Source of the DNA: an uncultured Gammaproteobacteria bacterium
GTDB lineage: Bacteria; Patescibacteriota; Patescibacteriia; UBA9570; XYC2-FULL-38-9
DNA length: 60,385 bases
NCBI GenBank assembly: GCA_964492735.1
Contig: CAZBLE010000006.1
Coordinates: forward strand, 1 to 60,385
Reading direction: 5' to 3'
Positions 6,678 to 58,755 of the stretch are shown one piece after another. The notes under the pieces are model-generated. The model saw only the letters and a program-made list of their open reading frames with translations. It was not told the origin of the DNA and ran no database searches. A program made the position numbers and the translations under genes. Each line of letters starts with the position of its first letter. Position 1 is the first letter of the stretch.

Positions 6678-7442
6678 ATGATATTCAGTGATACGAACAC
6701 TATGAACACCACCTTAATTATCCCTGCATTTTTTGCGGGCCTCCTCATGTTTCTTGCGCCGTGCACACTGCCACTTGTGCCTGGCTATTTGGCATTTATT
6801 GGTGGCGGCGCTGCGGCGGAACACAAAAAATGGAATATTTTTTGGAATGGTTTTTGGTATGTCATTGGATTTAGTGTCGTGTTTGTATTTCTTGGAAGTA
6901 TTGTTGGATTATTTGGAGCGACTATTCGATTAGATCAACGGCTCTTACTCGGGAGAATTGGTGGGCTGTTTATTTTTCTGTTTGGCGTATTTTTAGTTGG
7001 TGGCTCACAATGGCGTTTTTTACAGTGGATGAATGCGGAAAAAACAGTGCATATCAAAAATCTTCAACCAGGCAAACCGCTTTCGTCATTTTTATTTGGC
7101 GCGACATTTGCAATTGGCTGGACTCCATGTATCGGGCCAATACTCGGTTCTATTTTATTACTTGCAGCCACTTCAACGACAGTATGGCAAGGGGCGGGAT
7201 TACTGGCTGTATTTGCCATGGGTATGGGATTGCCATTTTTACTTCTGGCTGCAACTGCAGATGTTGCAATCAAACGATTGCGATATATCTACGCTTATTT
7301 ACCAATAATACAAAAAATTGGCGGCTTGTTTTTGATTGTCCTAGGACTTTGCATGATGGCTGGGTATATGGATGTGTGGAACAGGGTGCTATATAGCGCA
7401 TTTGGATTCATGCGTTATGAACGGTTGATTGATTTTTACTAG
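6678..7442 (+). CDS. ccdA: Cytochrome c biogenesis / thiol-disulfide transporter CcdA (DsbD transmembrane-domain family)
   Basis: FLAPCTLPLVPGYLAFIGG and IGWTPCIGPILGSILL carry the two conserved membrane Cys-Pro motifs. The true start may be the ATG at 6702, because an extended -10 (TGgTATGAT, 6674-6682) overlaps 6678. Confidence 0.85.
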   Translation: MIFSDTNTMNTTLIIPAFFAGLLMFLAPCTLPLVPGYLAFIGGGAAAEHKKWNIFWNGFWYVIGFSVVFVFLGSIVGLFGATIRLDQRLLLGRIGGLFIFLFGVFLVGGSQWRFLQWMNAEKTVHIKNLQPGKPLSSFLFGATFAIGWTPCIGPILGSILLLAATSTTVWQGAGLLAVFAMGMGLPFLLLAATADVAIKRLRYIYAYLPIIQKIGGLFLIVLGLCMMAGYMDVWNRVLYSAFGFMRYERLIDFY

Positions 7443-14956: not shown

Positions 14957-15091
14957 AGTTGTAAAATTAAGATAACCGACGCATCATACTGGTTTTTCGC
15001 AGTAAAGTCAATGTTTGCTCTTCGCAGTCTTTTTCAAAGTACTGTATACTATAGACAAGTCTCTAATTAAAAAATGAATAAAAGAGGAGGT

Positions 15092-15874
15092 ATGGCAAAA
15101 CAAACAACAGAGTCTAAAAAATTTACAAATTTACGTCGCTGGAATATCGCAATGTTTTTCTTGCATGCGATTCAAGCCGGACTCATGTTCGCGCTGAGTA
15201 GTGATTTTTCATTACCGCTCACCACGCTATTTGTTGAGTTTAATCCACAGACAATGATGCTTGCTCAAAACATTGAAGAGCTTGGCATGGTCCGCGTTGG
15301 GCCTCTGGTCGCTGGATTTTTAGCGCTGTCTGCGCTCGCGCATTTGCTGGTGTCATTGCCAGGAATTTTTCAGTGGTATGTCCGCAATCTCAAAAAAGGA
15401 GTCAACTACGCACGTTGGATTGAATATTCTCTCAGCTCATCACTCATGATTGTGGTGATCGCAATGCTGACTGGAATGTATGACGCCATTAGTTTGGTGC
15501 TCATGTTCTCACTCAATGCCATGATGATTTTGTTTGGTTGGATGATGGAGCTCCATAATCAATCAACAAAGAAAACAGATTGGACATCATATATCTTTGG
15601 TTGCATTGCCGGAATTATCCCATGGATCGCGATTGCATGTTACCTCGCATTTGCAGGTGAAGGGGATTTCAAAGCGCCGACATTCGTGTATTGGCTCTTC
15701 TTCTCCATGTTCGTGTTCTTTAATACCTTTGCAGTCAACATGATTTTGCAATACAAAAAGGTTGGAAAATGGAGTGATTATACCTACGGCGAAAAAATGT
15801 ATATCATCTTAAGTCTTCTTGCGAAAACAGCGCTTGCGTGGCAAGTGTGGGCCGGGACATTACGTCCAGTGTAA
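15092..15874 (+). CDS. Heliorhodopsin
   Basis: Strong Shine-Dalgarno sequence AAGAGGAGG 2 nt before the ATG at 15092. Family blocks as I recall them from HeR 48C12: RWIEYSLSSSLMIVVIA (counterion Glu), ILFGWMME, FGCIAGIIPWIAI, GEKMYIILSLLAKTALAWQVWAGTL (Schiff-base Lys in SLLAK). Seven TM segments. Confidence 0.85.
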   Translation: MAKQTTESKKFTNLRRWNIAMFFLHAIQAGLMFALSSDFSLPLTTLFVEFNPQTMMLAQNIEELGMVRVGPLVAGFLALSALAHLLVSLPGIFQWYVRNLKKGVNYARWIEYSLSSSLMIVVIAMLTGMYDAISLVLMFSLNAMMILFGWMMELHNQSTKKTDWTSYIFGCIAGIIPWIAIACYLAFAGEGDFKAPTFVYWLFFSMFVFFNTFAVNMILQYKKVGKWSDYTYGEKMYIILSLLAKTALAWQVWAGTLRPV

Positions 15875-15885
15875 AGAGCGCGCGT

Positions 15886-17607
15886 ATGAATTTTTTGCAT
15901 AAAAAAAATCTTCGTCGTTCGTTTTTACTGCTTTTGTCACTCGCGTGTGTTTCACACCTTGCGACAGGTTCGGTATTCGCTGCATCATCAGTATCGACGA
16001 CAATCAAAGCCACAAAAATTCTATTGAATAAAAAAGGCTCTTCTATTTCAGCACAAGGTGCGCGGCCTGTTATTATTAAAGATGGATTAAAGGTGACAGG
16101 GGATATTACAGTAGGTGATGGAAAAACAGTTGATGGAGTGGATGTTGGAAATTTAGCTGCGACGGTTGCAGCATTGCAGTTAGGAACAGGAGGAGTTTCA
16201 TACACGGCCGGAACAGGTGTTTCTATTAGTGGTACAGCAATTAGCGCAACTCTTGGAACAAGCGTTGAATCAGCTGAGCTCACTGATGCGACAGTTACAG
16301 CTGATGATTTAGCAGATAATAGTGTTGGTGCGGGGGAGCTTGGAAATACTGCAATTCAAAATGGTGATATTGAAACTGCCGATCTTCCGAATGATTTAGC
16401 AATTTCTGGAGGTACAATCAATAACACAACGATTGGAGCAACAACAGCTTCAACAGGAAATTTTTCAAATCTTACGCTCAATGGAACCTCTCCGGTATTG
16501 CCCGTGCTCGGCTCTGTCCCAAAAGCAATTGTGAATAGGACTATTGATACAATAGGGCAAGGTCCTTCTACAACGATTGGAGTGGATGGTTTTCCGATTA
16601 TTTCCTATATTGATAGTACAAACCGTGATTTAAAAGTTGCACATTGTGAGAATGTGAATTGTAGCAGTTCGACTATTACAACAGTATCTGATGATGGACG
16701 GCTCTATACGGCTATTATTATTGGAGCAGATGGTTTGCCAGTGATTGTCTATGACCGATTTAGTTCCAATGGTGTTATGGTGGTAAAGTGTGGCAACACT
16801 GCCTGTTCTTCCGGAAACACCACCTCTGTTATTGAAGCAGTGAGTATACGTTTACCTTCAATAAGTATTGGAGCAGATGGTTTGCCAGTTCTGGCCTATA
16901 ATGAAGTGTCTGGTGCTGATTTAAAAGCTGTAAAATGTGGGAATACAGCGTGTTCTTCTGGAAATACTATTACAACGATTGATAATGATAGTATTGTTTC
17001 TTTTAGTCCAACAACGATTGTGGTGCCACCGGATGGACTACCGGTTATTGCATACCATAAATATAGTAGTGCATTTGATTTAAAAGTTGCAAAGTGCACA
17101 CTTGCAGATTGTTCAACAAGTACCACCGAAATTCTTGATACTCCAAATAATGTTGGACTCTATAGCTCGTTAACGATTGGTATTGATGGCTTGCCAATAG
17201 TGAGTTATTACGATGATTCGAATGATAATTTAATGATTGCAAAATGTGGTGATGCAACATGTACAAATGCATCTGCAACTATCACAACCGTTGATAGTAC
17301 TGGGAATGTCGGGTCTGGTAACACTATTACGATTGGGCCTGATGGGTTTCCGATTGTTGCGTATATGGATGAGACAAATGGTTATATAAAAGTACTCAAA
17401 TGCAGCACATTGAGCTGCGCAACGGGAAATACAACAACTGCAGTAGTGAATCTTAACACAACATCATTTTTCTACGTGCATATACTTTCTCTAACAATGG
17501 GTAGGAATAATTTGCCATTTATTGCGTACTTCCACCAAGGAGATGAAAGTCTGAGAACGGCGGCTCTTGGTAGTATTTTTGGTAGTGGGTATTTTATCCG
17601 CAGGTAG
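15886..17607 (+). CDS. Secreted surface protein: signal peptide, fibre-like G/T/S-rich region, seven-blade repeat domain with conserved Cys pairs
   Basis: Signal peptide MNFLHKKNLRRSFLLLLSLACVSHLATGSVFA. The repeat unit is IGxDGxPxIxYxDxxxxxLKxxKCxxxxCxxxxxT. Confidence 0.7.
   Translation: MNFLHKKNLRRSFLLLLSLACVSHLATGSVFAASSVSTTIKATKILLNKKGSSISAQGARPVIIKDGLKVTGDITVGDGKTVDGVDVGNLAATVAALQLGTGGVSYTAGTGVSISGTAISATLGTSVESAELTDATVTADDLADNSVGAGELGNTAIQNGDIETADLPNDLAISGGTINNTTIGATTASTGNFSNLTLNGTSPVLPVLGSVPKAIVNRTIDTIGQGPSTTIGVDGFPIISYIDSTNRDLKVAHCENVNCSSSTITTVSDDGRLYTAIIIGADGLPVIVYDRFSSNGVMVVKCGNTACSSGNTTSVIEAVSIRLPSISIGADGLPVLAYNEVSGADLKAVKCGNTACSSGNTITTIDNDSIVSFSPTTIVVPPDGLPVIAYHKYSSAFDLKVAKCTLADCSTSTTEILDTPNNVGLYSSLTIGIDGLPIVSYYDDSNDNLMIAKCGDATCTNASATITTVDSTGNVGSGNTITIGPDGFPIVAYMDETNGYIKVLKCSTLSCATGNTTTAVVNLNTTSFFYVHILSLTMGRNNLPFIAYFHQGDESLRTAALGSIFGSGYFIRR
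16570..17607 (+). repeat. Seven tandem coding repeats of about 46-52 aa (propeller-blade-like); six contain a C-x4-C pair
   Basis: Examples: LKVAHCENVNCSSST, VVKCGNTACSSGNT, AVKCGNTACSSGNT, VAKCTLADCSTST, IAKCGDATCTNAS, VLKCSTLSCATGNT. The last unit is degenerate and lacks the Cys pair. Confidence 0.75.
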
Positions 17608-17644
17608 CCTGTTCGTGGTTTTATAGTGTGCTATACTCGTTTCC

Positions 17645-19021
17645 ATGATTTCACCATGGATTCACCAACTGAACCGAACACGACCTGCTGCAGAACTGTC
17701 TGAAAATGCTATTGCTGATGTTGTTGTGATTGGCGCAGGGATTGCTGGAGTGACAACAGCTTACTATATATTGAAAAACACCACGCACCGCGTCTTTCTC
17801 ATTGAAGCGGGGAAAGTTGCGCATGGTGCAACTGGGCACAACGCAGGGCAAATTGCGAGTTATTTTGAACGCACGTTTGCAGACATTGCAGATGAGTTTG
17901 GCTTGGAGCTTGCGGCTCGTGGCCAAGAGTCGATTGATAACGCGTGGATTTTGCTTGAAGAAATTTTGCGTGATACAGCAATTCCAGCGCCACTCTGGCC
18001 GGTGACCGGGTATGCAGGAATTTCAAGTTCGGAATTGCTCGCGACCTATCTTGAAGATACCTATTTAAAACATTCAGCTGGTATTCAAGCAGAAGATCTA
18101 TTGATTGCAGATACAGTTGATCTCATAACAATTCCAGAAAAATACCACGGTCATTATACGGTATTGCCGCTCGCTGACATTCAGTCACTCCTGAACACAA
18201 ATGACCCAGAGTATATCGCCGCCTTGCGCGGTCGGAAAGGGTGTATGAATAGCGCGCTGTTTTGTGAAGAGCTGGTTCAATGGATGCTTGAGAATTATGC
18301 GGAGCGTTTACGCCTTGCTGAACACTCTCCGGTGCAACTTGTTCAATGTATGGCTGATGGTGTGATTGTGCATGCCAATGGTTTTACGATTCCAGCACAA
18401 TACGCAGTGCTTTGCACAAATGGTTTCGAGCATTTTGCAATTGAAAGTGAGAACAATCCAACACTCAATACAGATTTTCATTCGATGATTCATGGTACAA
18501 TTGGCTATATGGCTGCGTATCTTGACGAACAGGATCAGCCGCCAGCTGCGATGAGTTATTTAGAGCTTGTTGAATCGGCAGAGTCGCGTGACTCTGAGCC
18601 ACCGGCGTATATTTATTTAACACGCCGGCCGTTTGAACTCGAGGCTGATAAAAAACATAATTTGATTTGTATCGGTGGACCAGAGGAGTACCTGGAAGAT
18701 CATCGAGAATATTCACCAGACATGGCATATCGAGATCTTTCGTTAGTCGAGATGACAGAGTTTTTACAGAAAACTGTGCGTGATGCGCCGACAGATCCAA
18801 AGTATACATATCAATGGCATGGCCTGATGGGGTATACGCGCAATAATATGCGTCGGGTTGGACCGGAGCCAACTGAATCACGCCTGCTGTATAACCTTGG
18901 ATGTAATGGTGTTGGAATTTTACCGTCTATTTTTGGCGGGCACCGAATTGCGCGGTATTTAAATAATGAGTCTGTTGAGCCGTCAATCTTTGATGTCCCA
19001 AATCAATTATCATCTGTATGA
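17645..19021 (+). CDS. FAD-dependent oxidoreductase (DAO family)
   Basis: Dinucleotide-binding motif VVVIGAGIAGVTTAYYIL. 458 aa. Confidence 0.75.
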   Translation: MISPWIHQLNRTRPAAELSENAIADVVVIGAGIAGVTTAYYILKNTTHRVFLIEAGKVAHGATGHNAGQIASYFERTFADIADEFGLELAARGQESIDNAWILLEEILRDTAIPAPLWPVTGYAGISSSELLATYLEDTYLKHSAGIQAEDLLIADTVDLITIPEKYHGHYTVLPLADIQSLLNTNDPEYIAALRGRKGCMNSALFCEELVQWMLENYAERLRLAEHSPVQLVQCMADGVIVHANGFTIPAQYAVLCTNGFEHFAIESENNPTLNTDFHSMIHGTIGYMAAYLDEQDQPPAAMSYLELVESAESRDSEPPAYIYLTRRPFELEADKKHNLICIGGPEEYLEDHREYSPDMAYRDLSLVEMTEFLQKTVRDAPTDPKYTYQWHGLMGYTRNNMRRVGPEPTESRLLYNLGCNGVGILPSIFGGHRIARYLNNESVEPSIFDVPNQLSSV

Positions 19022-19716
19022 AAAAAACTTCTTGGGATCAAGAATATGAAAAGCCTGTATTAATGACAGGAAGCACAACAGCGCAGCCATCTGTTTTAAA
19101 ATTATTGCGCTTACTCAAAAAGCAATATGATTTTCGAGTTGAAGATAAACGGATTCTTGATTTTGCGTGTGGAACAGGGCGACTAGCGATTGATCTTGCA
19201 CAGCGCGGTGCAACAGTTTCTGGTTTTGATATCTCTGGCATCGCGATTGAGCAGGCTCGCAAAATGGCCCATGAGCACGGTTTGAGAATTGACCTCAAGC
19301 AATTTGAGTGGAATGCGCGGGCCACGATTGACGAGCGTGAGGCATATTTTGATGGTGTGATCATGAATATGGCGTTTCATTTATTTGATGCAGCAGGGCG
19401 TACGCATGCGCTGCAAGAAATTCATCGTATTCTTCGGCCACGTGGTTTTGTGGTTATTCGGACGCTGGCAGTAGAAGGGGATACGAATGCAAAGCAGTTG
19501 CTCGTAGATCACCCATCACCGCAAGATCCAGGCTCATACCGCATGCCAGACATGAAGCATGACGAGCATCCATTCTCACGCACAGAACTAATGGAGTTGT
19601 TTGGTGCTACAGGCAACTGGACTGTTGTGCATATCCAAAAAGTGACAGGGCACCCACGATTTAATGGCAAGATCTATAAAAGACAGTATTGGGAAGTGAT
19701 TGCACAAAAAGCATAG
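19018..19716 (+). CDS. Class I SAM-dependent methyltransferase
   Basis: ILDFACGTGRLAIDLAQRGATVSGFDIS (motif I plus acidic post-I). ATGA overlap with the upstream gene. Confidence 0.75.
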   Translation: MKKTSWDQEYEKPVLMTGSTTAQPSVLKLLRLLKKQYDFRVEDKRILDFACGTGRLAIDLAQRGATVSGFDISGIAIEQARKMAHEHGLRIDLKQFEWNARATIDEREAYFDGVIMNMAFHLFDAAGRTHALQEIHRILRPRGFVVIRTLAVEGDTNAKQLLVDHPSPQDPGSYRMPDMKHDEHPFSRTELMELFGATGNWTVVHIQKVTGHPRFNGKIYKRQYWEVIAQKA

Positions 19717-19776
19717 ATTTTTGTGATGAGGACCGTAGGTTTGTAGATATCCTTATTTTTCGGTATGATTTCAATC

Positions 19777-19881
19777 ATGCGCCAACAAATAAGATATCAA
19801 TATAGTCGTTATGCTGCTGATAGTATTGTTTTTTTATTGCTAGGGTTTGCTATTTTTATGGTATCGAGGAGTTGCGGATAA
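19777..19881 (+). other. Short ORF encoding the missing first transmembrane helix of the NOX-like gene, in a different frame
   Basis: MRQQIRYQYSRYAADSIVFLLLGFAIFMVSRSCG-stop. Removing one T from the T5 run at 19853-19857 fuses it to the downstream frame, giving ...LLLGFAILWYRGVADNN.... Confidence 0.5.
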
Positions 19882-21103
19882 CAACGTATTTACAACAACA
19901 GAATCAACCCTGACAGCAATCGGGCAGGTCCTTGGCTTCATTGGTATTGTATTATTCGCGTTGAATTTGATTATCAGCGCGCGGTTTATATGGCTTGAAG
20001 GACTCTTTGGAGGTCTGAATCGTTTGTATATTCAACATAGTCGTTACGGTCAATGGGCATTTATTGCATTATTGTTTCACCCATTGCTCTTGGTTTTTCA
20101 ATATAGCGGCGGGTCATTTGTGCTCGCAATCAAGTTTTTGTTGCCGAGCGATAATGTACCACTGACATTTGGCATCATCGGTCTGTATTCAATGATTGCA
20201 TTAATTGCATTGACGCTCTATATTCGTCCGCATTATCACTTATGGAAATGGCTGCATAAATTATTTGGTGTGGCATTTTTCTTTGGAGGATTGCATGTGT
20301 TATTAATTCCAAGTTCTTTGAGTCAATATGCGCCATTAAAAATCTATATCTTAACGATCGTTGTCTTAGGTTTGTCGGCGTATGTGTACCGCAGTCTGCT
20401 CGCGCAGTTTTTCGTGCGCCAATATCGATATACGGTGTTGAGTGTAACACCATTAAATAACATGATTACACGCGTTCTTTTAAAGCCCGTCGCACAGCCC
20501 ATGAATCATCGGGCTGGGCAATTTTTGTTTATTCGATTTATTGACCATGATGTATCTGCTGAAGCACATCCATTTAGTATTGTGTCAGAGCCGGGCGCAG
20601 AATTTTTAGAAATTGCTGTAAAAAATAGTGGTGATTATACGGCAAGGCTGAATCAGTTGTCGGCAGGGTCCGAAGCTTTTCTTGAAGGGCCATTCGGCTA
20701 TTTTTTCGTGCCCAATGGGGCGGTGCAAAAACAAGTCTGGGTTGCCGGAGGAATTGGGATCACGCCATTCATGGGTCGGGTGCGTTTAATGGCACAGTCA
20801 GGCCTATCTGAAGGGGAGTCTATTGATTTCTATTATTGTGTGCGAAATAGTACTGAAACAGTGTATCTTGATGAGCTGCGTGCACTCGAACAATTATTTC
20901 CCGGCCGATTTCGTGTCATTGTTTTTGCATCTGATACAGAAGGCCGCATTACTGCAGAAACGATTGCAGAGCGCTCTGGAGGACTTACAGAGACAGATGT
21001 GTTTATGTGCGCACCACCTGCCATGATTCACAGTTTAAAGAAACAATTTCGAGCGATCGGTGTTTCAAAAGCTGCGCTGCATTCAGAAGAATTTTCGTTG
21101 TAA
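19847..21103 (+). CDS. NOX-like membrane oxidoreductase: ferric-reductase transmembrane domain plus FAD-binding and NAD(P)H-binding FNR-like domains
   Basis: Bis-His heme motifs HSRYGQWAFIALLFH (H-x13-H) and HKLFGVAFFFGGLH (H-x12-H). FAD motif HPFSIVS, NAD(P)H motif VAGGIGITPF, and C-terminal MCAPPAM. Only 5 TM helices lie in this frame; the sixth is in the 19777 frame. Confidence 0.8.
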   Translation: MLFLWYRGVADNNVFTTTESTLTAIGQVLGFIGIVLFALNLIISARFIWLEGLFGGLNRLYIQHSRYGQWAFIALLFHPLLLVFQYSGGSFVLAIKFLLPSDNVPLTFGIIGLYSMIALIALTLYIRPHYHLWKWLHKLFGVAFFFGGLHVLLIPSSLSQYAPLKIYILTIVVLGLSAYVYRSLLAQFFVRQYRYTVLSVTPLNNMITRVLLKPVAQPMNHRAGQFLFIRFIDHDVSAEAHPFSIVSEPGAEFLEIAVKNSGDYTARLNQLSAGSEAFLEGPFGYFFVPNGAVQKQVWVAGGIGITPFMGRVRLMAQSGLSEGESIDFYYCVRNSTETVYLDELRALEQLFPGRFRVIVFASDTEGRITAETIAERSGGLTETDVFMCAPPAMIHSLKKQFRAIGVSKAALHSEEFSL

Positions 21104-21106
21104 TAT

Positions 21107-21466
21107 ATGAAATACCTCACACTCGCTGCTATGATCATTTTCACGCTGACTGTTGGAACAGTTGGTCTCTTGAGCTTGCTGTTTCCGAATGCAACCTATG
21201 CACCAACCTCATCTGCAAATGCAAATCAAGCAGCGCAACCAACCTTTACTGCAAAGCAAGTCTCACAGCACGCAAAAAAAACCGACTGTTATTTAATCGT
21301 GAAGGGAGTTGTCTATGACGTGACGTCATATATTGGCGCGCATCCAGGAGGAGCAGGGGAGATTACAAGTCGTTGCGGCGGCGAAGTAACAAGTATATTC
21401 ACTTCAATTCATTCAAATGCAGCCTGGAACCTGCTTGGAAAATATGAGGTAGGAAAATTACAATAG
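21107..21466 (+). CDS. Exported or membrane-anchored cytochrome b5-like heme-binding domain protein
   Basis: N-terminal hydrophobic segment, then CYLIVKGVVYDVTSYIGAHPGG...SIHS (HPGG and HS heme ligands). Starts 3 nt after the NOX-like stop. Confidence 0.8.
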   Translation: MKYLTLAAMIIFTLTVGTVGLLSLLFPNATYAPTSSANANQAAQPTFTAKQVSQHAKKTDCYLIVKGVVYDVTSYIGAHPGGAGEITSRCGGEVTSIFTSIHSNAAWNLLGKYEVGKLQ

Positions 21467-21480
21467 ACCGCGCGAGTTTG

Positions 21481-22152
21481 TTATCGTGTGAATATTGAAT
21501 AGAGTGCAATCGCAGCAGCGTGGGTGACATTCAGTGATTCAAGGGTTTCGTTATGTTCAATAACGAGGGAAGTGCCGCTAATGTCCATTGTGATGCCGTG
21601 TCCTTCAGAGCCGAGAATAATCACTGGTCGTGTTGCGACTGTTGCTTGTTGCAAGGCAATGCTTTCAGGTCGCTTTTCAATGCGGTACACTGGTCGCTCT
21701 AAGGCCGTAATGAATTCAACTGCCTTTCCGCGAGTCATACTCATCCATGGAACGTGAAAGAGTGCGCCACTACTTGCACGCACAACCTTTGAGCTCGTAA
21801 TATCAGCTGACTCAATCGCAATAATTGCACCATCAAATGCAAGGGCAAGGCGTAATAATGTACCGACGTTCCCTGGATCTTGCACACCGTCTAATACAAC
21901 GACCACAGATTGATTTTGGATGTCATCGAGCGTCCATTCCGGAATGCGTGCCACTGCCGCAATGGGTTGAGGGTGTTCGGTTGTGACAAGTGTTTCAAAT
22001 TTAAAGCTATCGTTTCCCGTAAATGTCCATTCAATATAGCTCTTTGCTTCTGCGACTGGGATTTCACCTTCGACTAATAGGAGGTTGTTTTCTCGACGAC
22101 CTTTTTTTGTGTGGAGTTTTTTAATCAGTGATTCTTGGGCTTTTGTGAGCAT
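21481..22152 (-). CDS. TrmH/SpoU-family RNA 2'-O-methyltransferase
   Basis: VVVLDGVQDPGNVGTLLRLALAFD, IILGSEGHGI, ESLNVTHAAAIALY. Confidence 0.85.
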   Translation of the reverse strand: MLTKAQESLIKKLHTKKGRRENNLLLVEGEIPVAEAKSYIEWTFTGNDSFKFETLVTTEHPQPIAAVARIPEWTLDDIQNQSVVVVLDGVQDPGNVGTLLRLALAFDGAIIAIESADITSSKVVRASSGALFHVPWMSMTRGKAVEFITALERPVYRIEKRPESIALQQATVATRPVIILGSEGHGITMDISGTSLVIEHNETLESLNVTHAAAIALYSIFTR

Positions 22153-22204
22153 AAGATGAGTGTGTTATGATAATTTCGCAGTTCCTACTATTTATAACAC
22201 ATTT

Positions 22205-22705
22205 ATGAAATATACACTTTCTATTGCCTTGTTCAGCGCTTTGCTGCTCATGGGCGCATCTTGTGGTAAAACCGCAGATACAACAACAAATACAACAGAG
22301 TCAGCAATAGCGAATGCTCAAGCAGCTGCTTCTGTGACAACAAATTCTACGAATACAGCAGTAAATACAACTACTCCAACAAATACCAACACAAATAAAA
22401 CAGCTGGTGTGACGACTACAACAAATGACGCTCAAGCAGGTCTTGAAGAGCCAGCGGCGGCTGCAAGTGGCATTTCAGCCAGTGATATTGCAAAACACAA
22501 CACAAAATCAGATTGTTGGACAAGTATTTCTGGAAAAGTGTATGACGTGACGAAGTACATCGCGAAGCATCCAGGTGGTCAGGTGATTACACAAATATGC
22601 GGAAAAGAGGGTACGCAGCTATTTGCAACACAAGGTGGACGTGGGCAACACAGCGGCACAGCTCGATCTCAACTTGCGACATTTGAGATCGGAACATTGC
22701 AATAA
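22205..22705 (+). CDS. Exported (possibly lipoprotein) cytochrome b5-like heme-binding domain protein with T/N-rich linker
   Basis: MKYTLSIALFSALLLMGASCGK signal peptide, low-complexity TTNT linker, then CWTSISGKVYDVTKYIAKHPGG...QHSGTA. Confidence 0.8.
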   Translation: MKYTLSIALFSALLLMGASCGKTADTTTNTTESAIANAQAAASVTTNSTNTAVNTTTPTNTNTNKTAGVTTTTNDAQAGLEEPAAAASGISASDIAKHNTKSDCWTSISGKVYDVTKYIAKHPGGQVITQICGKEGTQLFATQGGRGQHSGTARSQLATFEIGTLQ

Positions 22706-22757
22706 CCAAGTCTCAAAAATTGTCAAATTGACTGTTGATATCTTTTTGGCCTTTTTC

Positions 22758-22785
22758 TTGAGGTTTTTGGCACATTTGCTATAAT
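22758..22785 (+). promoter_or_regulatory. Extended -10 promoter upstream of HU (TTGAGG-16 nt-TGC-TATAAT)
   Basis: TATAAT at 22780-22785 is preceded by TGC. The -35-like hexamer is at 22758-22763. Confidence 0.55.
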
Positions 22786-22816
22786 ACCTTCAGCTAATTC
22801 ACTTAAACGAAGTCAT

Positions 22817-23101
22817 ATGCGAAAACCAATGACAAAGAGTCAGTTCGTCGCTCACCTCTCTGAGAAGTCAGGAATGAGTAAAAAAGAAGTTACAGCAATG
22901 TGGGAATTGCTTGTTGAAACTATCTACGACGAAACAAAACAAGCCGGAATGTGCACATTACCAGGCGTTGGTAAAATGGTGTTACAACAACGTGCAGCGC
23001 GCCAAGGCCGCAATCCTGCAACAGGCGAAACTATCAACATTCCTGCAAAGACAGTGTTGAAATTCCGTGTTGCAAAACAAGCGAAAGACGCAATTCTGTA
23101 A
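22817..23101 (+). CDS. hup: HU-family nucleoid-associated DNA-binding protein
   Basis: MTKSQFVAHLSEKSGMSKKEV...RQGRNPATGETINIPAKTVLKFRVAKQAKDAI. The start may be the ATG at 22829. Confidence 0.9.
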   Translation: MRKPMTKSQFVAHLSEKSGMSKKEVTAMWELLVETIYDETKQAGMCTLPGVGKMVLQQRAARQGRNPATGETINIPAKTVLKFRVAKQAKDAIL

Positions 23102-23122
23102 TTCATCTCACAATTCAGAAGC

Positions 23123-23148
23123 AAAAACCGGGCATGCCCCGGTTTTTT
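23123..23148 (+). terminator. Intrinsic terminator after HU
   Basis: AACCGGG-catgc-CCCGGTT followed by TTTTTT. Confidence 0.85.
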
Positions 23149-23204
23149 GTTTGTTGTATCTACTTTTAAAAAAGTGAAAGTGTCGATAGAGAGTTGTGCC
23201 AAAT

Positions 23205-23234
23205 AAAAAATCGGACAGAGGAGTCCGATTTTTT
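23205..23234. terminator. Bidirectional intrinsic terminator serving the minus-strand Lys-rich gene
   Basis: AAAAAATCGGAC-agagga-GTCCGATTTTTT. Confidence 0.8.
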
Positions 23235-23242
23235 ATGTAAGA

Positions 23243-23452
23243 CTATTTCTTACGTTTCGCTGGTTTTCGTTTAGCGACTTTCTTTACTGCTTTCTTCACT
23301 ACTTTTTTAGCGACTTTCTTTTTCGCCACCTTTTTCTTTGCTGGTTTTTTCGCTACTTTCTTTTTCACTACTTTTTTAACAGCTTTTTTTGCAGGTTTGC
23401 GAACAACTTTTTTCTTCGCAGGTTTTTTTGTTGCTTTTTTCTTTGTTGCCAT
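23243..23452 (-). CDS. Histone H1-like lysine/alanine-rich basic protein (69 aa)
   Basis: MATKKKATKKPAKKKVVRKPAKKAVKKVVKKKVAKKPAKKKVAKKKVAKKVVKKAVKKVAKRKPAKRKK. A GGGGG Shine-Dalgarno sequence lies 8 nt upstream of the ATG at 23452. The upstream part of the track ORF is not needed. Confidence 0.7.
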   Translation of the reverse strand: MATKKKATKKPAKKKVVRKPAKKAVKKVVKKKVAKKPAKKKVAKKKVAKKVVKKAVKKVAKRKPAKRKK

Positions 23453-23561
23453 TTGAAACACCCCCTTTCTTAAAAATGATACATATAGTATACCGTGCAT
23501 GTGCAATCACGAATAGAACAAAACGCATGCAAACTGTGGAAAACTTTTGTTGACGCTGCTG

Positions 23562-23603
23562 ATACCTTATGTTACAAGGTATATACCTCATAAGATAAGG
23601 TAT
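23562..23603. promoter_or_regulatory. Two abutting 21-bp palindromes (ATACCTT-N7-AAGGTAT and ATACCT-N9-AGGTAT) just upstream of padR; candidate PadR operators
   Basis: 23562-23582 ataccttatgttacaaggtat and 23583-23603 atacctcataagataaggtat. They overlap a TATATA/TATAAA -10 element 4-6 nt from the ATG at 23613. Confidence 0.6.
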
Positions 23604-23612
23604 ATAAATACT

Positions 23613-23957
23613 ATGAAATTTGAACCAGAATTATTAAAAGGCAGTACAAAAAATATTATTCTCGCAATTCTTCTAAAAGAAGATATGCATGGATATCAAA
23701 TGATTCGCGAAATTCGTGATCGAACACGTGAGTTATTAGAATATGGAGAGGGAAGTATTTATCCCGCATTGCATTTATTAGAACAAGAAAAATATGTGAA
23801 GAGTTATTGGGCGCAAGCAGAAAATGGACGCGATCGAAAATACTACAGCATCACAGCGAAAGGAAAGAAAAAACTACGTGTTGCAGTGAAAGAATGGAAG
23901 TTGTATAGCGATGCTGTTGATTCTTTGTTGAAAGGCTTGCGTTTGATTCAGTCGTAA
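23613..23957 (+). CDS. PadR-family transcriptional regulator
   Basis: LLKGSTKNIILAILLKEDMHGYQMIREI...GSIYPALHLLEQEKYVKSYW...RKYYSITAKGKK. Confidence 0.9.
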   Translation: MKFEPELLKGSTKNIILAILLKEDMHGYQMIREIRDRTRELLEYGEGSIYPALHLLEQEKYVKSYWAQAENGRDRKYYSITAKGKKKLRVAVKEWKLYSDAVDSLLKGLRLIQS

Positions 23958-23966
23958 GTTGATAGC

Positions 23967-24683
23967 GTGTTGTATATGAATCCATATTCATTAACTGCAG
24001 GCATGAGAGCGCATATTGCTGCAGTGGCAAAAAAATCAAAAGTTTCCCGTGTAAAGCGTCATGACATTCAACGTGAGCTTACAGCTTTCGCAGAAGACTA
24101 CGCCCGTGAGCTTCATTTTGACGGAAAGGATGCTTCTGAAATTGAGGCTCTTGTGATTGAGGCAATTGGTGCGCCAGAGCAGCGCGGGAAAGAGTTTACG
24201 ATCGCAAATCGAATACTTGCTCGTGTTCCGTGGATTGGACCATTGTTTTATGATGACGCATTGCAGGCTGGTACCATACTCTTTTTATTACAGTTGTCTG
24301 GAATTGTTGTCTTCGTTGTATTCTTTTTAGGTCTCGAGAGTCGCATTCTTTCAAATACAGCATTGCGGTATAACATTGTGGAAATCGGATTTTTCCTATT
24401 GTGGTTGCTGTATGGATTTGTGCTTGGCATGTATACGCGTTTACGATTACAGTTTTTTTGGAAAAGTTTTGATGCAGTCATTGCCTCGATGACTCCCGTG
24501 ATTCTATTTTTTGTTGTCTTTGTTGCGAATCGTTCTGTTGAGGTATATGCGCATAGTGCGACATTCCGCCTTGATTCATTGTATTATTCTCTTTTCTTTT
24601 TGTTCCTGTATCCACCTCTCTTTTGTGGAATCATTGTGCCATATAACGTAGTGAAAAAATTTCAGCGAAAAAGTAATCGATAA
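23967..24683 (+). CDS. PadR-associated membrane protein (soluble helical N-terminus plus 4-5 TM)
   Basis: Directly downstream of padR, an arrangement typical of PadR-linked membrane partners. No catalytic motif seen. Confidence 0.55.
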   Translation: MLYMNPYSLTAGMRAHIAAVAKKSKVSRVKRHDIQRELTAFAEDYARELHFDGKDASEIEALVIEAIGAPEQRGKEFTIANRILARVPWIGPLFYDDALQAGTILFLLQLSGIVVFVVFFLGLESRILSNTALRYNIVEIGFFLLWLLYGFVLGMYTRLRLQFFWKSFDAVIASMTPVILFFVVFVANRSVEVYAHSATFRLDSLYYSLFFLFLYPPLFCGIIVPYNVVKKFQRKSNR

Positions 24684-24695
24684 TTATTATCCTGT

Positions 24696-25859
24696 ATGAA
24701 TTATTCTAATCGTTTTCGTTTTTATTCAAGTATATTCGGCGGTATAAGCATCATTGTTCTATTTATTATACTCCGCGGTATGGTGAATACTGCACTGGAC
24801 CCAATTCATGGAGCTGTGCCGTTTGACCAATTAGAAAATCCACCAAAAGATGCGTTTGTCTTGATTCAAAACCATGGTGATAAAGATGGCGGTGCTTCTC
24901 AAGTAGTTTCGCTTAACGGGGCAGTGATGAAAAAATCATCGAGCGCTACGAGTGAGTGGTATAGTGCTATTCGTTTGTGGGAGGGTGAAGAATTTATCAT
25001 CGCGTCTGGAACAAAAGATGGCTATGGGTATCAGCAGTGGCTGACATCAAAAGATGGCCAACTTCAAGAAATTCAGTTACCTTCTGTTTGCCAAGGAGGA
25101 TTTACAGAAAATGCAAGCGAGAGTATAACTTGCGTAGGAAGTGTTTCTCTTTCGCCAGATCAACAGCAAATCCTTCTTGCGGGCTGGCGGTCAGATGCGA
25201 CGCAGTCAGTAGAGTCGACTGAGTCAGTGTATGTTTTGTGGAATCGATTAGACAATAGTAGTCAGGTTATTCGAAAAGCTGATTTGCCAATTGATGAGCA
25301 ATTAAAAAATGATAGAGGAGTATACCTTTCCATTGAGTGGGAGAAAAGTAACCCACATACAGCCTTTGTGATTGTGCAAAAAGAACAAGAAGGCGTAGTA
25401 ACGCAACTCGCACGCTTTCGCTACTCAACAGACAGTGGTGTGTATGAGTCATATGGACTCACTGCAGACTATGGTCCATTAATGATTCCAGTGGTTCAAG
25501 AAAATGCTCGAATGCTGGATATGACCAGTGCTTCACCGCATCCTATTTCACTGCCATATACGTATGAAAAATTTGGTGGTGTTTTGATCCCATTCCAGAG
25601 CATTGTGGTTCGTGATTCAAAAACACAAGTGGGTAGTACAATCATGCGGTGGCGAAAATTCTTTGGATTTAATTCAGTGTATGTGTATCAAGTTGGTATT
25701 AAAGATAATCCCGAATGGTTTATTGTACGGATTGATAATAACCTGTTTTTAACAAAAATTGGTAGTACGCAATATTCATATATCACAAGCTTGCCGTATG
25801 AAGCTCCAGAAGAAATGCCAACAATTATGGTTGATATCGTCGCTCTAAATAAGCAGTGA
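24696..25859 (+). CDS. hypothetical membrane-anchored extracytoplasmic protein (387 aa)
   Basis: N-terminal TM segment FYSSIFGGISIIVLFIILRGMV followed by a soluble domain. No family recognised. Confidence 0.55.
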   Translation: MNYSNRFRFYSSIFGGISIIVLFIILRGMVNTALDPIHGAVPFDQLENPPKDAFVLIQNHGDKDGGASQVVSLNGAVMKKSSSATSEWYSAIRLWEGEEFIIASGTKDGYGYQQWLTSKDGQLQEIQLPSVCQGGFTENASESITCVGSVSLSPDQQQILLAGWRSDATQSVESTESVYVLWNRLDNSSQVIRKADLPIDEQLKNDRGVYLSIEWEKSNPHTAFVIVQKEQEGVVTQLARFRYSTDSGVYESYGLTADYGPLMIPVVQENARMLDMTSASPHPISLPYTYEKFGGVLIPFQSIVVRDSKTQVGSTIMRWRKFFGFNSVYVYQVGIKDNPEWFIVRIDNNLFLTKIGSTQYSYITSLPYEAPEEMPTIMVDIVALNKQ

Positions 25860-25883
25860 TATGTTGCAACATACTTATGCACG

Positions 25884-25918
25884 ACACACCTTTTCTCATT
25901 GAGAAGGTGTGTTTTTTT
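25884..25918 (+). terminator. Intrinsic terminator
   Basis: ACACACCTTTTCTC-att-GAGAAGGTGTGT followed by TTTTTTT. Confidence 0.85.
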
Positions 25919-25962
25919 GTGTGAGTTGACGAAACCGTCTAACCAAGGCACAATCTGACCAT

Positions 25963-26292
25963 ATGATAGAACTTACAACAATCGCAGTCTGTCAGGCGCC
26001 GATGTGCCAAGAAAAGGGAAGTAAGACAATTTTATTGCGTTTGCATGAGCAGTACGCGGCAGAGTTTCAAACAACGTATCCAGGTTTGCAGATTATCGCA
26101 GGTGATTGCCAAGGAGAGTGTGAAACTGGTCCGAATGTTCGTGTTAACGATACATTTTTATTGAAAAATGTTGATAAGGATAAAGCAAAAGTACTTCTCG
26201 AAAATCCAGATATCTTACTTGGTGAAATTCAACATGTTCAAGAAAAAGACCAAGAGACCTTTCAGCGTATTGTGAGCGGAGAGTTGTATTAA
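25963..26292 (+). CDS. Thioredoxin-like [2Fe-2S] ferredoxin domain protein
   Basis: Four Cys in the family pattern: VCQAPMCQEKG...GDCQGECETGPNVRVND. Confidence 0.7.
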   Translation: MIELTTIAVCQAPMCQEKGSKTILLRLHEQYAAEFQTTYPGLQIIAGDCQGECETGPNVRVNDTFLLKNVDKDKAKVLLENPDILLGEIQHVQEKDQETFQRIVSGELY

Positions 26293-26811
26293 CTATTTCG
26301 TTAAAAAGAAAAACACGTACCAACCAAGAAACAGGACTTGAATAATATAGCCTTGCGTGAGTCGAATTGGTGTGCGGATGAGGTCGTGGCACCAGCCATG
26401 AAATTTTTGAAATGGAGTGATAATCTGAAATAGACTTTCAGCAATGTTTTTTCGTAATCCAGGAATAGCTGTTGGAAATACACCAAATTCAATGTGGGTA
26501 TACAGTGTCATTAAGAGGTCTGGCAACACGCCGCCTAACGCTCCCCAAATGATCAGATCATTCTGTGGGTGGTCTTTAAATAAGAGTGTGATTAAAATAA
26601 GCGCAATGGTTGTAGACCCATCAGCAATGGCAATTCGTCGTCCAAATGGATCATAGAGATTTTCTGCAAGCCGCCAATAGATAAATTCATCGCCATGAGG
26701 AATCATGTCGAGAATAAAATGGGAGAGTATAGCAGCAAAAAAACCAAGCATTGGATCTCCGGTCCAATACGCAACAACGATTCCTGCGGCTGCATGGGTA
26801 GTGAGTGTCAT
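26293..26811 (-). CDS. Membrane-bound metal-dependent hydrolase, YdjM/DUF457-like
   Basis: MTLTTHAAAGIVVAY...ILSHFILDMIPHGDE and a multi-TM body. Confidence 0.65.
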   Translation of the reverse strand: MTLTTHAAAGIVVAYWTGDPMLGFFAAILSHFILDMIPHGDEFIYWRLAENLYDPFGRRIAIADGSTTIALILITLLFKDHPQNDLIIWGALGGVLPDLLMTLYTHIEFGVFPTAIPGLRKNIAESLFQIITPFQKFHGWCHDLIRTPIRLTQGYIIQVLFLGWYVFFFLTK

Positions 26812-48168: not shown

Positions 48169-48597
48169 TTATTTTTTTGATTCCTTAGATAGTCCGCTCA
48201 TCAGCATATAGAGGAGGAGTCCAAATGGCCCAGACATCAATGTAAAAAATAAGGCGATGCGCAGCTTCAGTAGGTTTTTATTATTTTGAATAGTGTCTAG
48301 CCATAAAAATCGACCAACAAATAAATCCCATACAAGAATATGTAGCCACACCAGAGTAATGCCAAAGTCGTTGCTCAAGAGTGCGACGATGCTGTCTAAT
48401 TGCGGATTTGCAACTGCTGGGAGAATATCGCCAAACGCTGGAACAATCAGCAGGGTGTAGATCACCGCGAGTGGAATAAATTGCCAATAGCCGCGATTGA
48501 GCTTTTGTGTCAGATTGCTGTGCGGCGCAATAATCATTGTGAGCCAAAAAGGCAAGACAACGATATTGATGATTTGAAAAATGAGTGTGTAATTCAT
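48169..48597 (-). CDS. DUF4281 / ABA4-like membrane protein (143 aa from MNYTLIF)
   Basis: VLPFWLTMIIAPHS...WLHILVWDLFVGRFLWLD...MSGPFGLLLYML matches my recollection of the ABA4-like family. The N-terminal extension in the track (to 48867) overlaps a better plus-strand gene. Confidence 0.6.
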   Translation of the reverse strand: MNYTLIFQIINIVVLPFWLTMIIAPHSNLTQKLNRGYWQFIPLAVIYTLLIVPAFGDILPAVANPQLDSIVALLSNDFGITLVWLHILVWDLFVGRFLWLDTIQNNKNLLKLRIALFFTLMSGPFGLLLYMLMSGLSKESKK

Positions 48598-48721
48598 TGT
48601 GTGTTTTATTATTTCTATTATGGACATTGTCGCACAAGAGAGTGCTGTCTCGCAAGCACTGCTTGCATGATTTGCGCTGTTTCGATAGGGTGAGTGTCCA
48701 ACTGACATTACGGAGGATGCA

Positions 48722-49012
48722 ATGTCTTTAAGGCAAAGTGCTGATTTGCTGCGGCTTGCTGGGATGTTTCCTGAGGCAATTATTGCAGCCCTTGGGTTTA
48801 TCCGTGGACTCCAAGATGGAGGCAAGCTCACGGATTCAGCAGTTCGTGAGATCATTCGGAACACCAAGGCTCTTGCTGAGCTCGGTGCTCATCCGGTGCT
48901 CGACATCTCGGACTTGCTCCTGGTCGTGCGCTGGCTCTTGCGAATGGCGCAGCAGGATCCGGATTCACTCAGAGACTCCCTGAAAAAAATGCAGGCGTAT
49001 CTAAGTGAATGA
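48722..49012 (+). CDS. hypothetical helical protein (96 aa), visibly GC-richer than its neighbours
   Basis: A GGAGG Shine-Dalgarno sequence lies 6 nt before the ATG. No family recognised. Confidence 0.5.
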   Translation: MSLRQSADLLRLAGMFPEAIIAALGFIRGLQDGGKLTDSAVREIIRNTKALAELGAHPVLDISDLLLVVRWLLRMAQQDPDSLRDSLKKMQAYLSE

Positions 49013-58326: not shown

Positions 58327-58755
58327 TTACATCCAAAGTCCAATCACAAGCGCCATTGCAGTGAGAGTGACGACTTGGCAGGCAGCTTGAATACTGATTT
58401 GTTTCCATAGTACTTCACGACTCACGCCAGACCACATGACCGCACCAATGAGAGTTGGGAAGACAATACCAATGAGAGCCCACCAGATGATTTCATATGG
58501 ACTACCTTGTGCTTGTAAGGCGAGCTGCATAAAATGAGCGAGTACATATGCCTCAATGAATGTGATGATAAGTTGAATGATATACAGTGGACCAGCTTCT
58601 TGCGCCGCTGCTTTTTTTTCTGCATCAGAGCGCTTATTGAAGCCTGTGACAATCATCCATTGTTTTCGAAATAAGACGCTGTACCATAACGCGCCAATGA
58701 TGTACGCCACCACTGTTGCCGCGATGACAGATAAAATATTGATTTCGATATTCAT
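58327..58755 (-). CDS. DUF1761 membrane protein
   Basis: N-terminal ILSVIAATVVAYIIGALWYSVLFRKQW is typical of DUF1761. Confidence 0.65.
   Translation of the reverse strand: MNIEINILSVIAATVVAYIIGALWYSVLFRKQWMIVTGFNKRSDAEKKAAAQEAGPLYIIQLIITFIEAYVLAHFMQLALQAQGSPYEIIWWALIGIVFPTLIGAVMWSGVSREVLWKQISIQAACQVVTLTAMALVIGLWM

Follow-up and report, generated by a model that had tools for sequence, protein, structure and literature searches.

We analysed a stretch of 60,385 nucleotides (nt) from a Patescibacteria genome (GenBank contig CAZBLE010000006.1), hereafter the window, which is contig C6 of an assembly of 1.104 Mb in 57 contigs (98% complete). It contains a gene for a flavocytochrome of the NADPH oxidase (NOX) type, followed on the same strand by the gene for a small, putatively exported cytochrome b5, here called b5-1. 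A profile search of the contigs found one ferric-reductase domain (FRD) match and two b5 matches in the whole genome, all of them inside 3 kb; by our own estimate, the chance of a given b5 lying within 1 kb of the NOX gene is about 0.002. The features of the pair are given below. Residues of the NOX open reading frame (ORF) are numbered from TTG 19847, TM stands for transmembrane helix, and A1 is an alignment of 43 NOX rows.

19765–19881, + strand: short frame of 38 amino acids (aa), MISIMRQQIRYQYSRY followed by a hydrophobic stretch; counterpart of the cytoplasmic N-terminal segment with TM1 in intact NOX homologues
19847–21103, + strand: main NOX ORF, 418 aa, TTG start; TM2–TM6 of the FRD, then an FAD- and NAD(P)H-binding dehydrogenase domain
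19853–19857, + strand: run of five T, site of an apparent 2-nt deletion or frameshift; relatives have two more bases
20036–20080, + strand: His pair of TM3, H64-x13-H78; H88/H102 in A1, invariant
20255–20296, + strand: His pair of TM5, H137-x12-H150; H161 (nearly invariant) and H174 (invariant) in A1
20567–20578, + strand: FAD-binding motif HPFS, residues 241–244; H265 and P266 invariant in A1
20747–20770, + strand: NAD(P)H-binding motif GGIGITPF, residues 301–308; G325, G326, G328, T330 and P331 invariant in A1
21107–21466, + strand: b5-1, 119 aa, starting 3 nt past the NOX stop; Pfam Cyt-b5, E = 6.9e-21, 74.5 bits (cut-off 23.7)

The NOX ORF matched the Pfam families Ferric_reduct (residues 29–147), FAD_binding_8 and NAD_binding_1. 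Its best solved relative was SpNOX (8qt6/8qq7; E = 4.6e-36, query residues 32–403), and the SpNOX dehydrogenase domain 8qq5 aligned with E = 2.9e-26. A CAPP motif was present at residues 388–391. An earlier note on this DNA had read a full SpNOX-type cofactor signature in 19847–21103, and this was borne out: every haem-ligand, FAD, NAD(P)H and CAPP motif was located. The overall architecture is that of SpNOX (8qt6, 8qq7), in which an FRD of six helices, carrying two His pairs, is followed by the FAD- and NAD(P)H-binding domains, and large outer loops are missing. The search for NOX homologues gave 1131 matches at E ≤ 1e-10. The best 120 of these all combine an FRD with an FAD-binding domain, and they include proteins carrying names of the candidate phyla radiation (CPR) type, such as Buchananbacteria, Gracilibacteria, Paceibacteria and Berkelbacteria. 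By its domains and motifs, the NOX ORF is a SpNOX-type flavocytochrome, and NAD(P)H-dependent reduction of O2 to superoxide or H2O2 may be one of its activities.

The FRD of the annotated ORF has both His pairs but only five helices, TM1 being encoded in another frame. The earlier note had the module start at 19764. This did not hold, as the nearby ATG 19765 opens a frame different from that of the main NOX ORF, with its stop at 19879–19881. Close NOX homologues have open frames of 453–462 aa and annotated lengths of about 427–440 aa; it follows that TM1 is included in the homologues. Alignment with the congeneric genome G001 placed a 2-nt gap of the window in the T-run at 19853–19857, and X2 and X6, from two other studies, each supply one contig (90–99% alike) with a TT inserted behind 19852. 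Two added bases would fuse the upstream TM1 frame with the main NOX ORF. The X1 contig, from a possible source sample (depth 6.9), was identical to the window at the T-run; the X5 contig does not reach the site. The genome's only NOX copy thus appears split between TM1 and TM2, through either a real mutation or a low-coverage error.

With TM1 cut off from the remaining helices by the 2-nt deficit, this strain may have a weakened or non-functional module. The only NOX copy could be a frameshifted pseudogene and the locus idle, an account that concerns this strain and is compatible with other readings at the level of the family. The deficit was seen against G001 and against contigs from two other studies, an independent contig of the possible source run matches the window, and the genome has only one FRD gene. 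Decay is nevertheless somewhat unlikely. The depth is only about 7×, and contigs drop variants; the remaining 418-aa frame is open and keeps every invariant residue. The TM1 peptide and the five-helix remainder, or a product starting at TTG 19847, might still assemble, and the b5-1 gene is intact.

The b5-domain protein with an N-terminal hydrophobic anchor, which the earlier note had placed 3 nt downstream of NOX, is present at 21107–21466. b5-1 is laid out as an anchor helix (residues 2–25), a linker (28–41) and a b5 domain (45–119), with Cys61/Cys90, His79 (in HPGG) and His102. The AlphaFold2 model (mean predicted local distance difference test score, pLDDT, of 75.3) showed a Lys-led 24-residue helix, a low-confidence, disordered linker and a b5 fold. 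Foldseek with this model retrieved solved b5 chains at TMt 0.82–0.85. The best PDB match by sequence was the bacterial b5 1CXY (E = 3.2e-13), the cytochrome b558 of Ectothiorhodospira vacuolata, in which both Cys and both His are aligned (40% identity to b5-1 over 80 columns in Foldseek). Cytochrome b558 is periplasmic and holds a disulfide; unlike b5-1, it is a soluble protein, and it has no known NOX partner. The closest solved relatives of b5-1 and of b5-2, the second b5 protein of the window, include 1CXY and flavocytochrome b2. From these sequences, b5-1 and b5-2 are classical bis-His cytochromes b5, and we infer that both are loaded with haem.

The export features of b5-1 recur in its relatives. 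All 54 b5 ORFs of the b5-first set open with Lys/Arg and then a strongly hydrophobic 17-mer, after which exactly two Cys occur in 53 of the 54. In a second alignment (A2, 20 b5 rows), the Cys pair was invariant (20/20) and both His ligands were kept in at least 90%. The linkers of the relatives are rich in T, S, N and P. Within the anchor, fixed columns show K (51/54 rows), T (41/54), L (39/54) and F (46/54), which is more conservation than a mere membrane anchor needs. The extracytoplasmic location that had been proposed for the b5 proteins was retained as a prediction, drawn from the leaders, the linkers, a lipobox-like box and the invariant Cys pair. b5-1 is predicted to be membrane-anchored and to face outward.

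In some b5-1 orthologues the protein is about 90 aa longer at the C-terminus, and this extension ends in an acidic, Trp-containing tail (...DDENDWTIWDTDADD...; L006:3129-3398, L007:3068-3331, L008:3112-3387 and L040:3676-3930). By eye we suspected a PepSY domain, which was rejected when Pfam at E ≤ 10 returned only two chance-level hits. One 391-aa open frame (G046:C18:2689-3573) contains three tandem Cyt-b5 domains.

Conservation of the pair was assessed from both sides. On the b5 side, species-representative genomes were searched with patterns of the b5-1 subfamily, which yielded 55 loci. Three of these end no more than 70 nt upstream of b5 and are uninformative. A full-length NOX gene was adjacent on the same strand in 49 of the 52 informative loci by tblastn (46 upstream, 3 downstream). 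The adjacent NOX of one further locus (L086) is cut by the contig end, which brings the paired loci to 50/52; L092 and L098 have no NOX within 3 kb. The spacing from the NOX stop to the b5 start was mostly −4 to +19 nt. Among 370 flanking ORFs, the recurring families were NOX (50 loci) and b5 (54 loci), and the next clusters reached at most 9 loci. Since no third family recurs beside the pair, the unit comprises strictly two genes. The module had originally been drawn more widely; its synteny is conserved for NOX and b5-1, and is not conserved for the second b5, the FAD oxidoreductase and the methyltransferase of the window.

On the NOX side, a search of 61 relatives gave an FRD-containing match in 16 genomes, with a b5 domain directly beside it in 7 of the 16; in G022, a sub-cut-off b5 match lies 1.1 kb from NOX on the other strand. 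The phylum was sampled with an even set of 400 Patescibacteria genomes, 54 of which have a full-length NOX homologue. A b5 gene lay within about 1 kb on the same strand in 17 of these 54, spread over 13 GTDB families, and in 8 of the 11 closest NOX homologues. Some b5 match was found in 28 of the 54. A FastTree phylogeny of 76 NOX rows (five presumed re-fetches left out) grouped the homologues with an adjacent b5 in a clade of 60 rows with support 97, whose sister is a 7-row clade without b5. A FUR-family regulator is the next gene in 3/3 loci checked in the sister clade (L010:2739-3143, L011:2732-3145, L016:1077-1493), a hint that points to iron or peroxide. The mirror-tree comparison of NOX with the b5 domain gave a Mantel r of 0.35 over 48 pairs, with 0/2000 permutations as high. 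So modest a correlation is expected of co-inherited neighbours and is therefore not evidence of contact.

Other arrangements were seen among these loci. In the sister clade, a BadF/BcrA-type ATPase gene lies upstream of the NOX homologue in 3/3 loci checked. L042, L043 and L044 (genomes G079, G106 and G155) hold larger operons in which NOX-type genes alternate with divergent b5-like proteins (THSGG, not HPGG). In L042 and L043 these are followed by a response regulator and a histidine kinase; the operons match the one depicted in a 2021 preprint discussed below. Near the b5–NOX pair of G128, a 394-aa protein fuses a Rieske [2Fe-2S] domain to a ferric-reductase transmembrane domain (L046:4417-5601, − strand), beside a MauE/DoxX-like gene.

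As the NOX of the window is split, the intact pair of G001 was folded instead (identity to the window 85% for NOX and 81% for b5). The input consisted of NOX residues 1–212, three haems and the whole b5, with one alignment per protein. The interface score ipSAE was 0.85, 0.86 and 0.86, versus 0.00 for the best of three controls, which were not necessarily membrane proteins; in the calibration, 116/157 solved complexes and 2/215 mismatched pairs attained the ipSAE mark. At least 51% of the contacts agreed between runs, and the partner pLDDT was at least 77. The confident interface joins b5 residues 1–30 with NOX residues 89–107 (TM3), 113–122 and 141–149 (TM4). In the predicted pose, the b5 N-terminus is located at the cytoplasmic helix ends and residues 19–30 are near the outer loop, which gives the anchor an N-in, C-out orientation. 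The conserved anchor residues T5 and F12 were among the lowest-error contacts.

We give a probability of about one half to the following reading: NOX and b5-1 form a two-gene operon in which NOX passes NAD(P)H electrons outward to the anchored b5-1. Electrons from cytoplasmic NAD(P)H would travel through FAD and the two transmembrane b haems to the outer membrane face. The b5-1 anchor helix would pack on TM3/TM4 of NOX with its N-terminus inside, and the disulfide-stabilised bis-His domain, tethered by some 19 linker residues, would be suspended above the outer face. We infer that the b5-1 haem would act as a third haem and immediate electron acceptor, reduced by NOX. The net effect of a flow in this direction would be the export of reducing equivalents and the regeneration of NAD(P)+, with Fe(III) chelates, O2 or another surface protein as candidate terminal acceptors. 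The probable lipoprotein b5-2, with its linker of about 69 residues, would be a plausible further relay rather than an obligate partner.

The known properties of SpNOX bear on this proposal. The outer haem of SpNOX is described as highly exposed, and in the absence of O2 the enzyme passes electrons straight to cytochrome c (PMC11564096), which makes outward transfer to a haem protein plausible. Its authors doubt that O2 is the physiological acceptor and liken SpNOX to MsrQ feeding MsrP (PMC11564096). Unlike the window, which encodes an exported b5 3 nt downstream, SpNOX has no partner gene reported in the portions of PMC5676040 and PMC11564096 drawn on here.

Several observations weigh against the operon as an electron path from NOX to b5-1. 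The haem domain is outside the confident contacts, so haem-to-haem docking is not backed by the prediction. The calibration was made without riding ligands and without user-made alignments, both of which were used here. TM3/TM4 is also the face that p22phox occupies on NOX2, and the success against the controls may therefore owe something to solved NOX complexes memorised by the predictor. Sampling for the tree was biased, most rows having been fetched through their b5. An adjacent b5 is absent in 37 of the 54 NOX genomes and any b5 match in 26 of the 54; it follows from these numbers that NOX-type enzymes of the phylum work without b5. No b5–NOX fusion was found among the best 120 of the 1131 NOX homologues or among 7 longer b5 relatives, which is weak evidence that none exists. 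Added to these are the frameshifted NOX of the window itself, the turnover of SpNOX on O2 and the lack of ferrochelatase and ALAD matches, the latter two of which also bear on the alternatives below.

SpNOX reduces O2 without any partner, as reported in the sections of PMC5676040 and PMC11564096 consulted. NOX could accordingly make superoxide or H2O2 from O2 at the exposed outer haem, with b5-1 serving as a p22phox-like subunit that stabilises, matures or tunes it. The confident contacts fit such a role: they involve the b5 anchor only, on the TM3/TM4 face where, according to the text used of PMC9711523, the small membrane partner p22phox sits on the NOX2 core. Contact of the organism with O2 is likely, since the genome encodes cytochrome bd subunit I (CydA; G000:C18:1278-2555, E = 1.6e-94) and gives a weak match to iron superoxide dismutases; near-identical DNA also occurs in runs labelled as wastewater, riverine, activated-sludge and freshwater metagenomes, and none of the runs listed for the stretch was an RNA data set. 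p22phox differs from b5-1 in its four helices, its cytosolic docking tail and the absence of a haem domain, and the two show no sequence relation. A pure stabiliser needs no conserved haem-binding domain, in contrast to the His conservation of at least 90% and the Cys pair of 20/20 in the b5 rows, and the majority of the phylum's NOX homologues (37/54) have no such subunit. Cytochrome b5 has a midpoint potential of about 0 mV; beside an exposed low-potential haem, it would be reduced anyway. We consider this oxidase function unlikely. On the same midpoint potentials, inward flow from b5 to NAD(P)+ was rejected.

Neither ferrochelatase nor ALAD was matched in the 98%-complete genome, so the cell probably scavenges all its haem. 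At least four haem-binding products are encoded nonetheless (NOX, the two b5 proteins and CydA). This combination is consistent with a role in haem handling, in which the exported b5 proteins would capture external haem at the cell surface and NOX would provide the electrons for reducing that haem, for its release or for its insertion into membrane haem proteins. In the part of their preprint used here, Tamarit et al. speculate about haem release from the Tyr-ligated cytb5MY of related operons. Such a function is very unlikely for the present pair: b5-1 and b5-2 are of the classical bis-His type, their nearest solved relatives (1CXY and flavocytochrome b2) are electron carriers rather than Tyr-ligated, MAPR-like proteins, and no transporter gene recurs beside the NOX/b5-1 pair among the 370 flanking ORFs. 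As for iron and oxygen, FeoB_N was matched in the genome, but also in 14/14 control genomes, so it is uninformative; FeoB_C and rubrerythrin were not found in the genome.

The operon reading thus concerns NOX and b5-1, and the genes around them were treated separately:

17645–19021, + strand: DAO-type FAD oxidoreductase (Pfam), context only
19018–19716, + strand: S-adenosylmethionine (SAM) methyltransferase (Pfam), context only
21481–22152, − strand: SpoU-family RNA methyltransferase (Pfam SpoU_methylase, E = 9.8e-24), context only
22205–22705, + strand: b5-2, 166 aa; Pfam Cyt-b5, E = 3.2e-19, 69.1 bits (cut-off 23.7)

All of these genes had been described in the earlier note, and all are present by Pfam: the FAD oxidoreductase and the SAM methyltransferase upstream, the opposite-strand methylase, which is the sole gene separating b5-1 from b5-2, and the second b5 protein with a signal- or lipoprotein-like leader. 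The most likely start of b5-2 is ATG 22205 (MKYTL...LMGASC), not GTG 22160. The protein contains LMGASC with Cys20, Cys104/Cys132, HPGG at 122 and QHS at 148, with His122/His149 as ligands, and its 69-residue linker is rich in T, A and N (21 T, 15 A, 9 N). LMGASC follows MKYTLSIALFSALL, and similar boxes occur in the orthologues L049 and L051, as judged against the lipobox consensus alone. b5-2 is probably a lipoprotein on a long tether.

The membership of these genes in the module was not sustained. Orthologues of b5-2 in G001 (L049) and G002 (L051) share the SpoU/HU/PadR context and have no NOX beside them. The order in both genomes is methyltransferase, SpoU, b5-2, HU and PadR, with the methyltransferase directly adjoining SpoU and no NOX between. 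The NOX/b5-1 pair of G001 lies 6 kb from b5-2; in the window, the pair is flanked by the methyltransferase gene on one side and SpoU on the other. The second b5, proposed as a NOX partner, is therefore not a conserved one. The genes 5′ of NOX in G001, G003 and G006 encode an ABC transporter, a Na/Ca exchanger and an ABC ATPase, and given these differing upstream genes, neither the DAO oxidoreductase nor the methyltransferase was kept in the module; both lack conservation beside NOX. From this gene order, b5-2 and the upstream genes appear to be bystanders, the link of b5-2 to NOX being loose and not conserved. The congener G001 has a third b5 gene (L050, G001:C15); a two-component system is oriented divergently to it, and a gene for a DUF1003 membrane protein comes after it.

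Further genes of the window may be mentioned for their possible redox connections or their recurrence. A small thioredoxin-like [2Fe-2S] ferredoxin is encoded 3 kb 3′ of b5-2 (25963–26292, + strand, E = 2.1e-08); such a gene was not seen beside the NOX/b5-1 module elsewhere among the 370 flanking ORFs. A DsbD_TM/CcdA-type membrane protein (6678–7442, + strand, E = 5.6e-20) belongs to a type that moves thiol-reducing power outward and may act on the oxidation state of the Cys pairs in the exported b5 proteins. An ABA4-like membrane protein (48169–48867, − strand, E = 1.3e-33) and a heliorhodopsin (15074–15874, + strand, E = 3.3e-99) are also encoded; a connection of the former with carotenoid or retinal supply would be conceivable. 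A DUF1761 protein was found at 58327–58755 (− strand), 37 kb off the module, and again at L048:3747-4178 (− strand), right after the NOX–b5 pair of G075; this may be a coincidence.

The earlier note knew of no described chain of this kind. Co-localisation of FRD and b5 genes in CPR had in fact been reported by Tamarit et al. (bioRxiv 10.1101/2021.11.17.468889). According to the portion of that preprint used here, PF01794 occurs in 1427 of 7645 CPR genomes, with PF00173 within 10 kb in 185, and the authors saw nothing of the kind outside CPR; they proposed a membrane complex whose function was unknown. The window resembles these pFre/cytb5 clusters in belonging to the same phylum and in having PF00173 within 10 kb of PF01794 in a CPR genome. 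The operon described there, as far as our source text goes, is different: it contains the Tyr-ligated cytb5MY, two atypical b5-like proteins (A/B) and a two-component system, in contrast to the two genes of the window with a classical bis-His b5 (1CXY-like, their clade 2). No response regulator or histidine kinase was present among the 14 ORFs scanned at 15074–26811. The main text of the preprint, supplements aside, does not contain the terms signal peptide, extracellular, periplasm, secreted, disulfide, cysteine or NADPH oxidase. Our keyword searches on CPR/Patescibacteria turned up no description of the NOX/b5 pairing beyond this preprint.

Other membrane systems deliver electrons to outer partners in a comparable way. 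In the sections used of Meheust et al. (PMC8238504), 1437 clusters combine an MsrQ-like PF01794 domain with a fused PF00175 NAD-binding domain, predicted to use NAD(P)H for the reduction of a redox protein outside the cytosol. The same text ties some MsrQ-like flavinylated systems to iron assimilation and finds flavinylation under-represented in CPR (PMC8238504). The outer partner there is an ApbE-flavinylated FMN-binding protein, mostly in Actinobacteria (PMC8238504, as covered here), unlike the haem b5 of the present pair, and no ApbE/FMN_bind match (PF02424, PF04205) was found in the whole 98%-complete genome. In the MsrQ–MsrP system of Gram-negative bacteria, an FRD-type di-haem membrane protein likewise feeds a specific extracytoplasmic protein partner, as outlined in the passages used of PMC11564096. 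MsrQ differs in having no dehydrogenase domain and in using quinol, and its partner is a molybdoenzyme; the genome gave no Oxidored_molyb match (PF00174, MsrP-type).

Against this background, the window locus adds a further example to a pairing that the preprint had described, and its value is that of a sharpened hypothesis, not of a discovery. What is new here is the bis-His b5 subfamily that is nearly always NOX-paired, the strictly two-gene unit, and the conserved anchor with its predicted site on NOX. The frameshift in the NOX of this genome and the placing of b5-2 and the upstream genes as bystanders are also new.

The b5 subfamily, found beside NOX in 50/52 loci, is a concrete and clonable candidate partner for bacterial NOX homologues. 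CPR bacteria are thought to lack respiratory chains; for their cells, the NOX/b5 module could re-oxidise NAD(P)H at the cell surface or reduce iron for uptake. More tentatively, and at less than even odds, b5-1 may be a stoichiometric subunit that completes a three-haem outward wire and serves as the physiological acceptor of the phylum's SpNOX-type enzymes; together with tethered b5 lipoproteins such as b5-2, it would then constitute a haem-based form of extracellular electron transfer. If true, this wire would be the counterpart of the flavin-based routes in Firmicutes and Actinobacteria, and fermentative, haem-scavenging CPR cells could use it to rid themselves of electrons from NAD(P)H, with Fe(III), O2 or a host surface as the sink.

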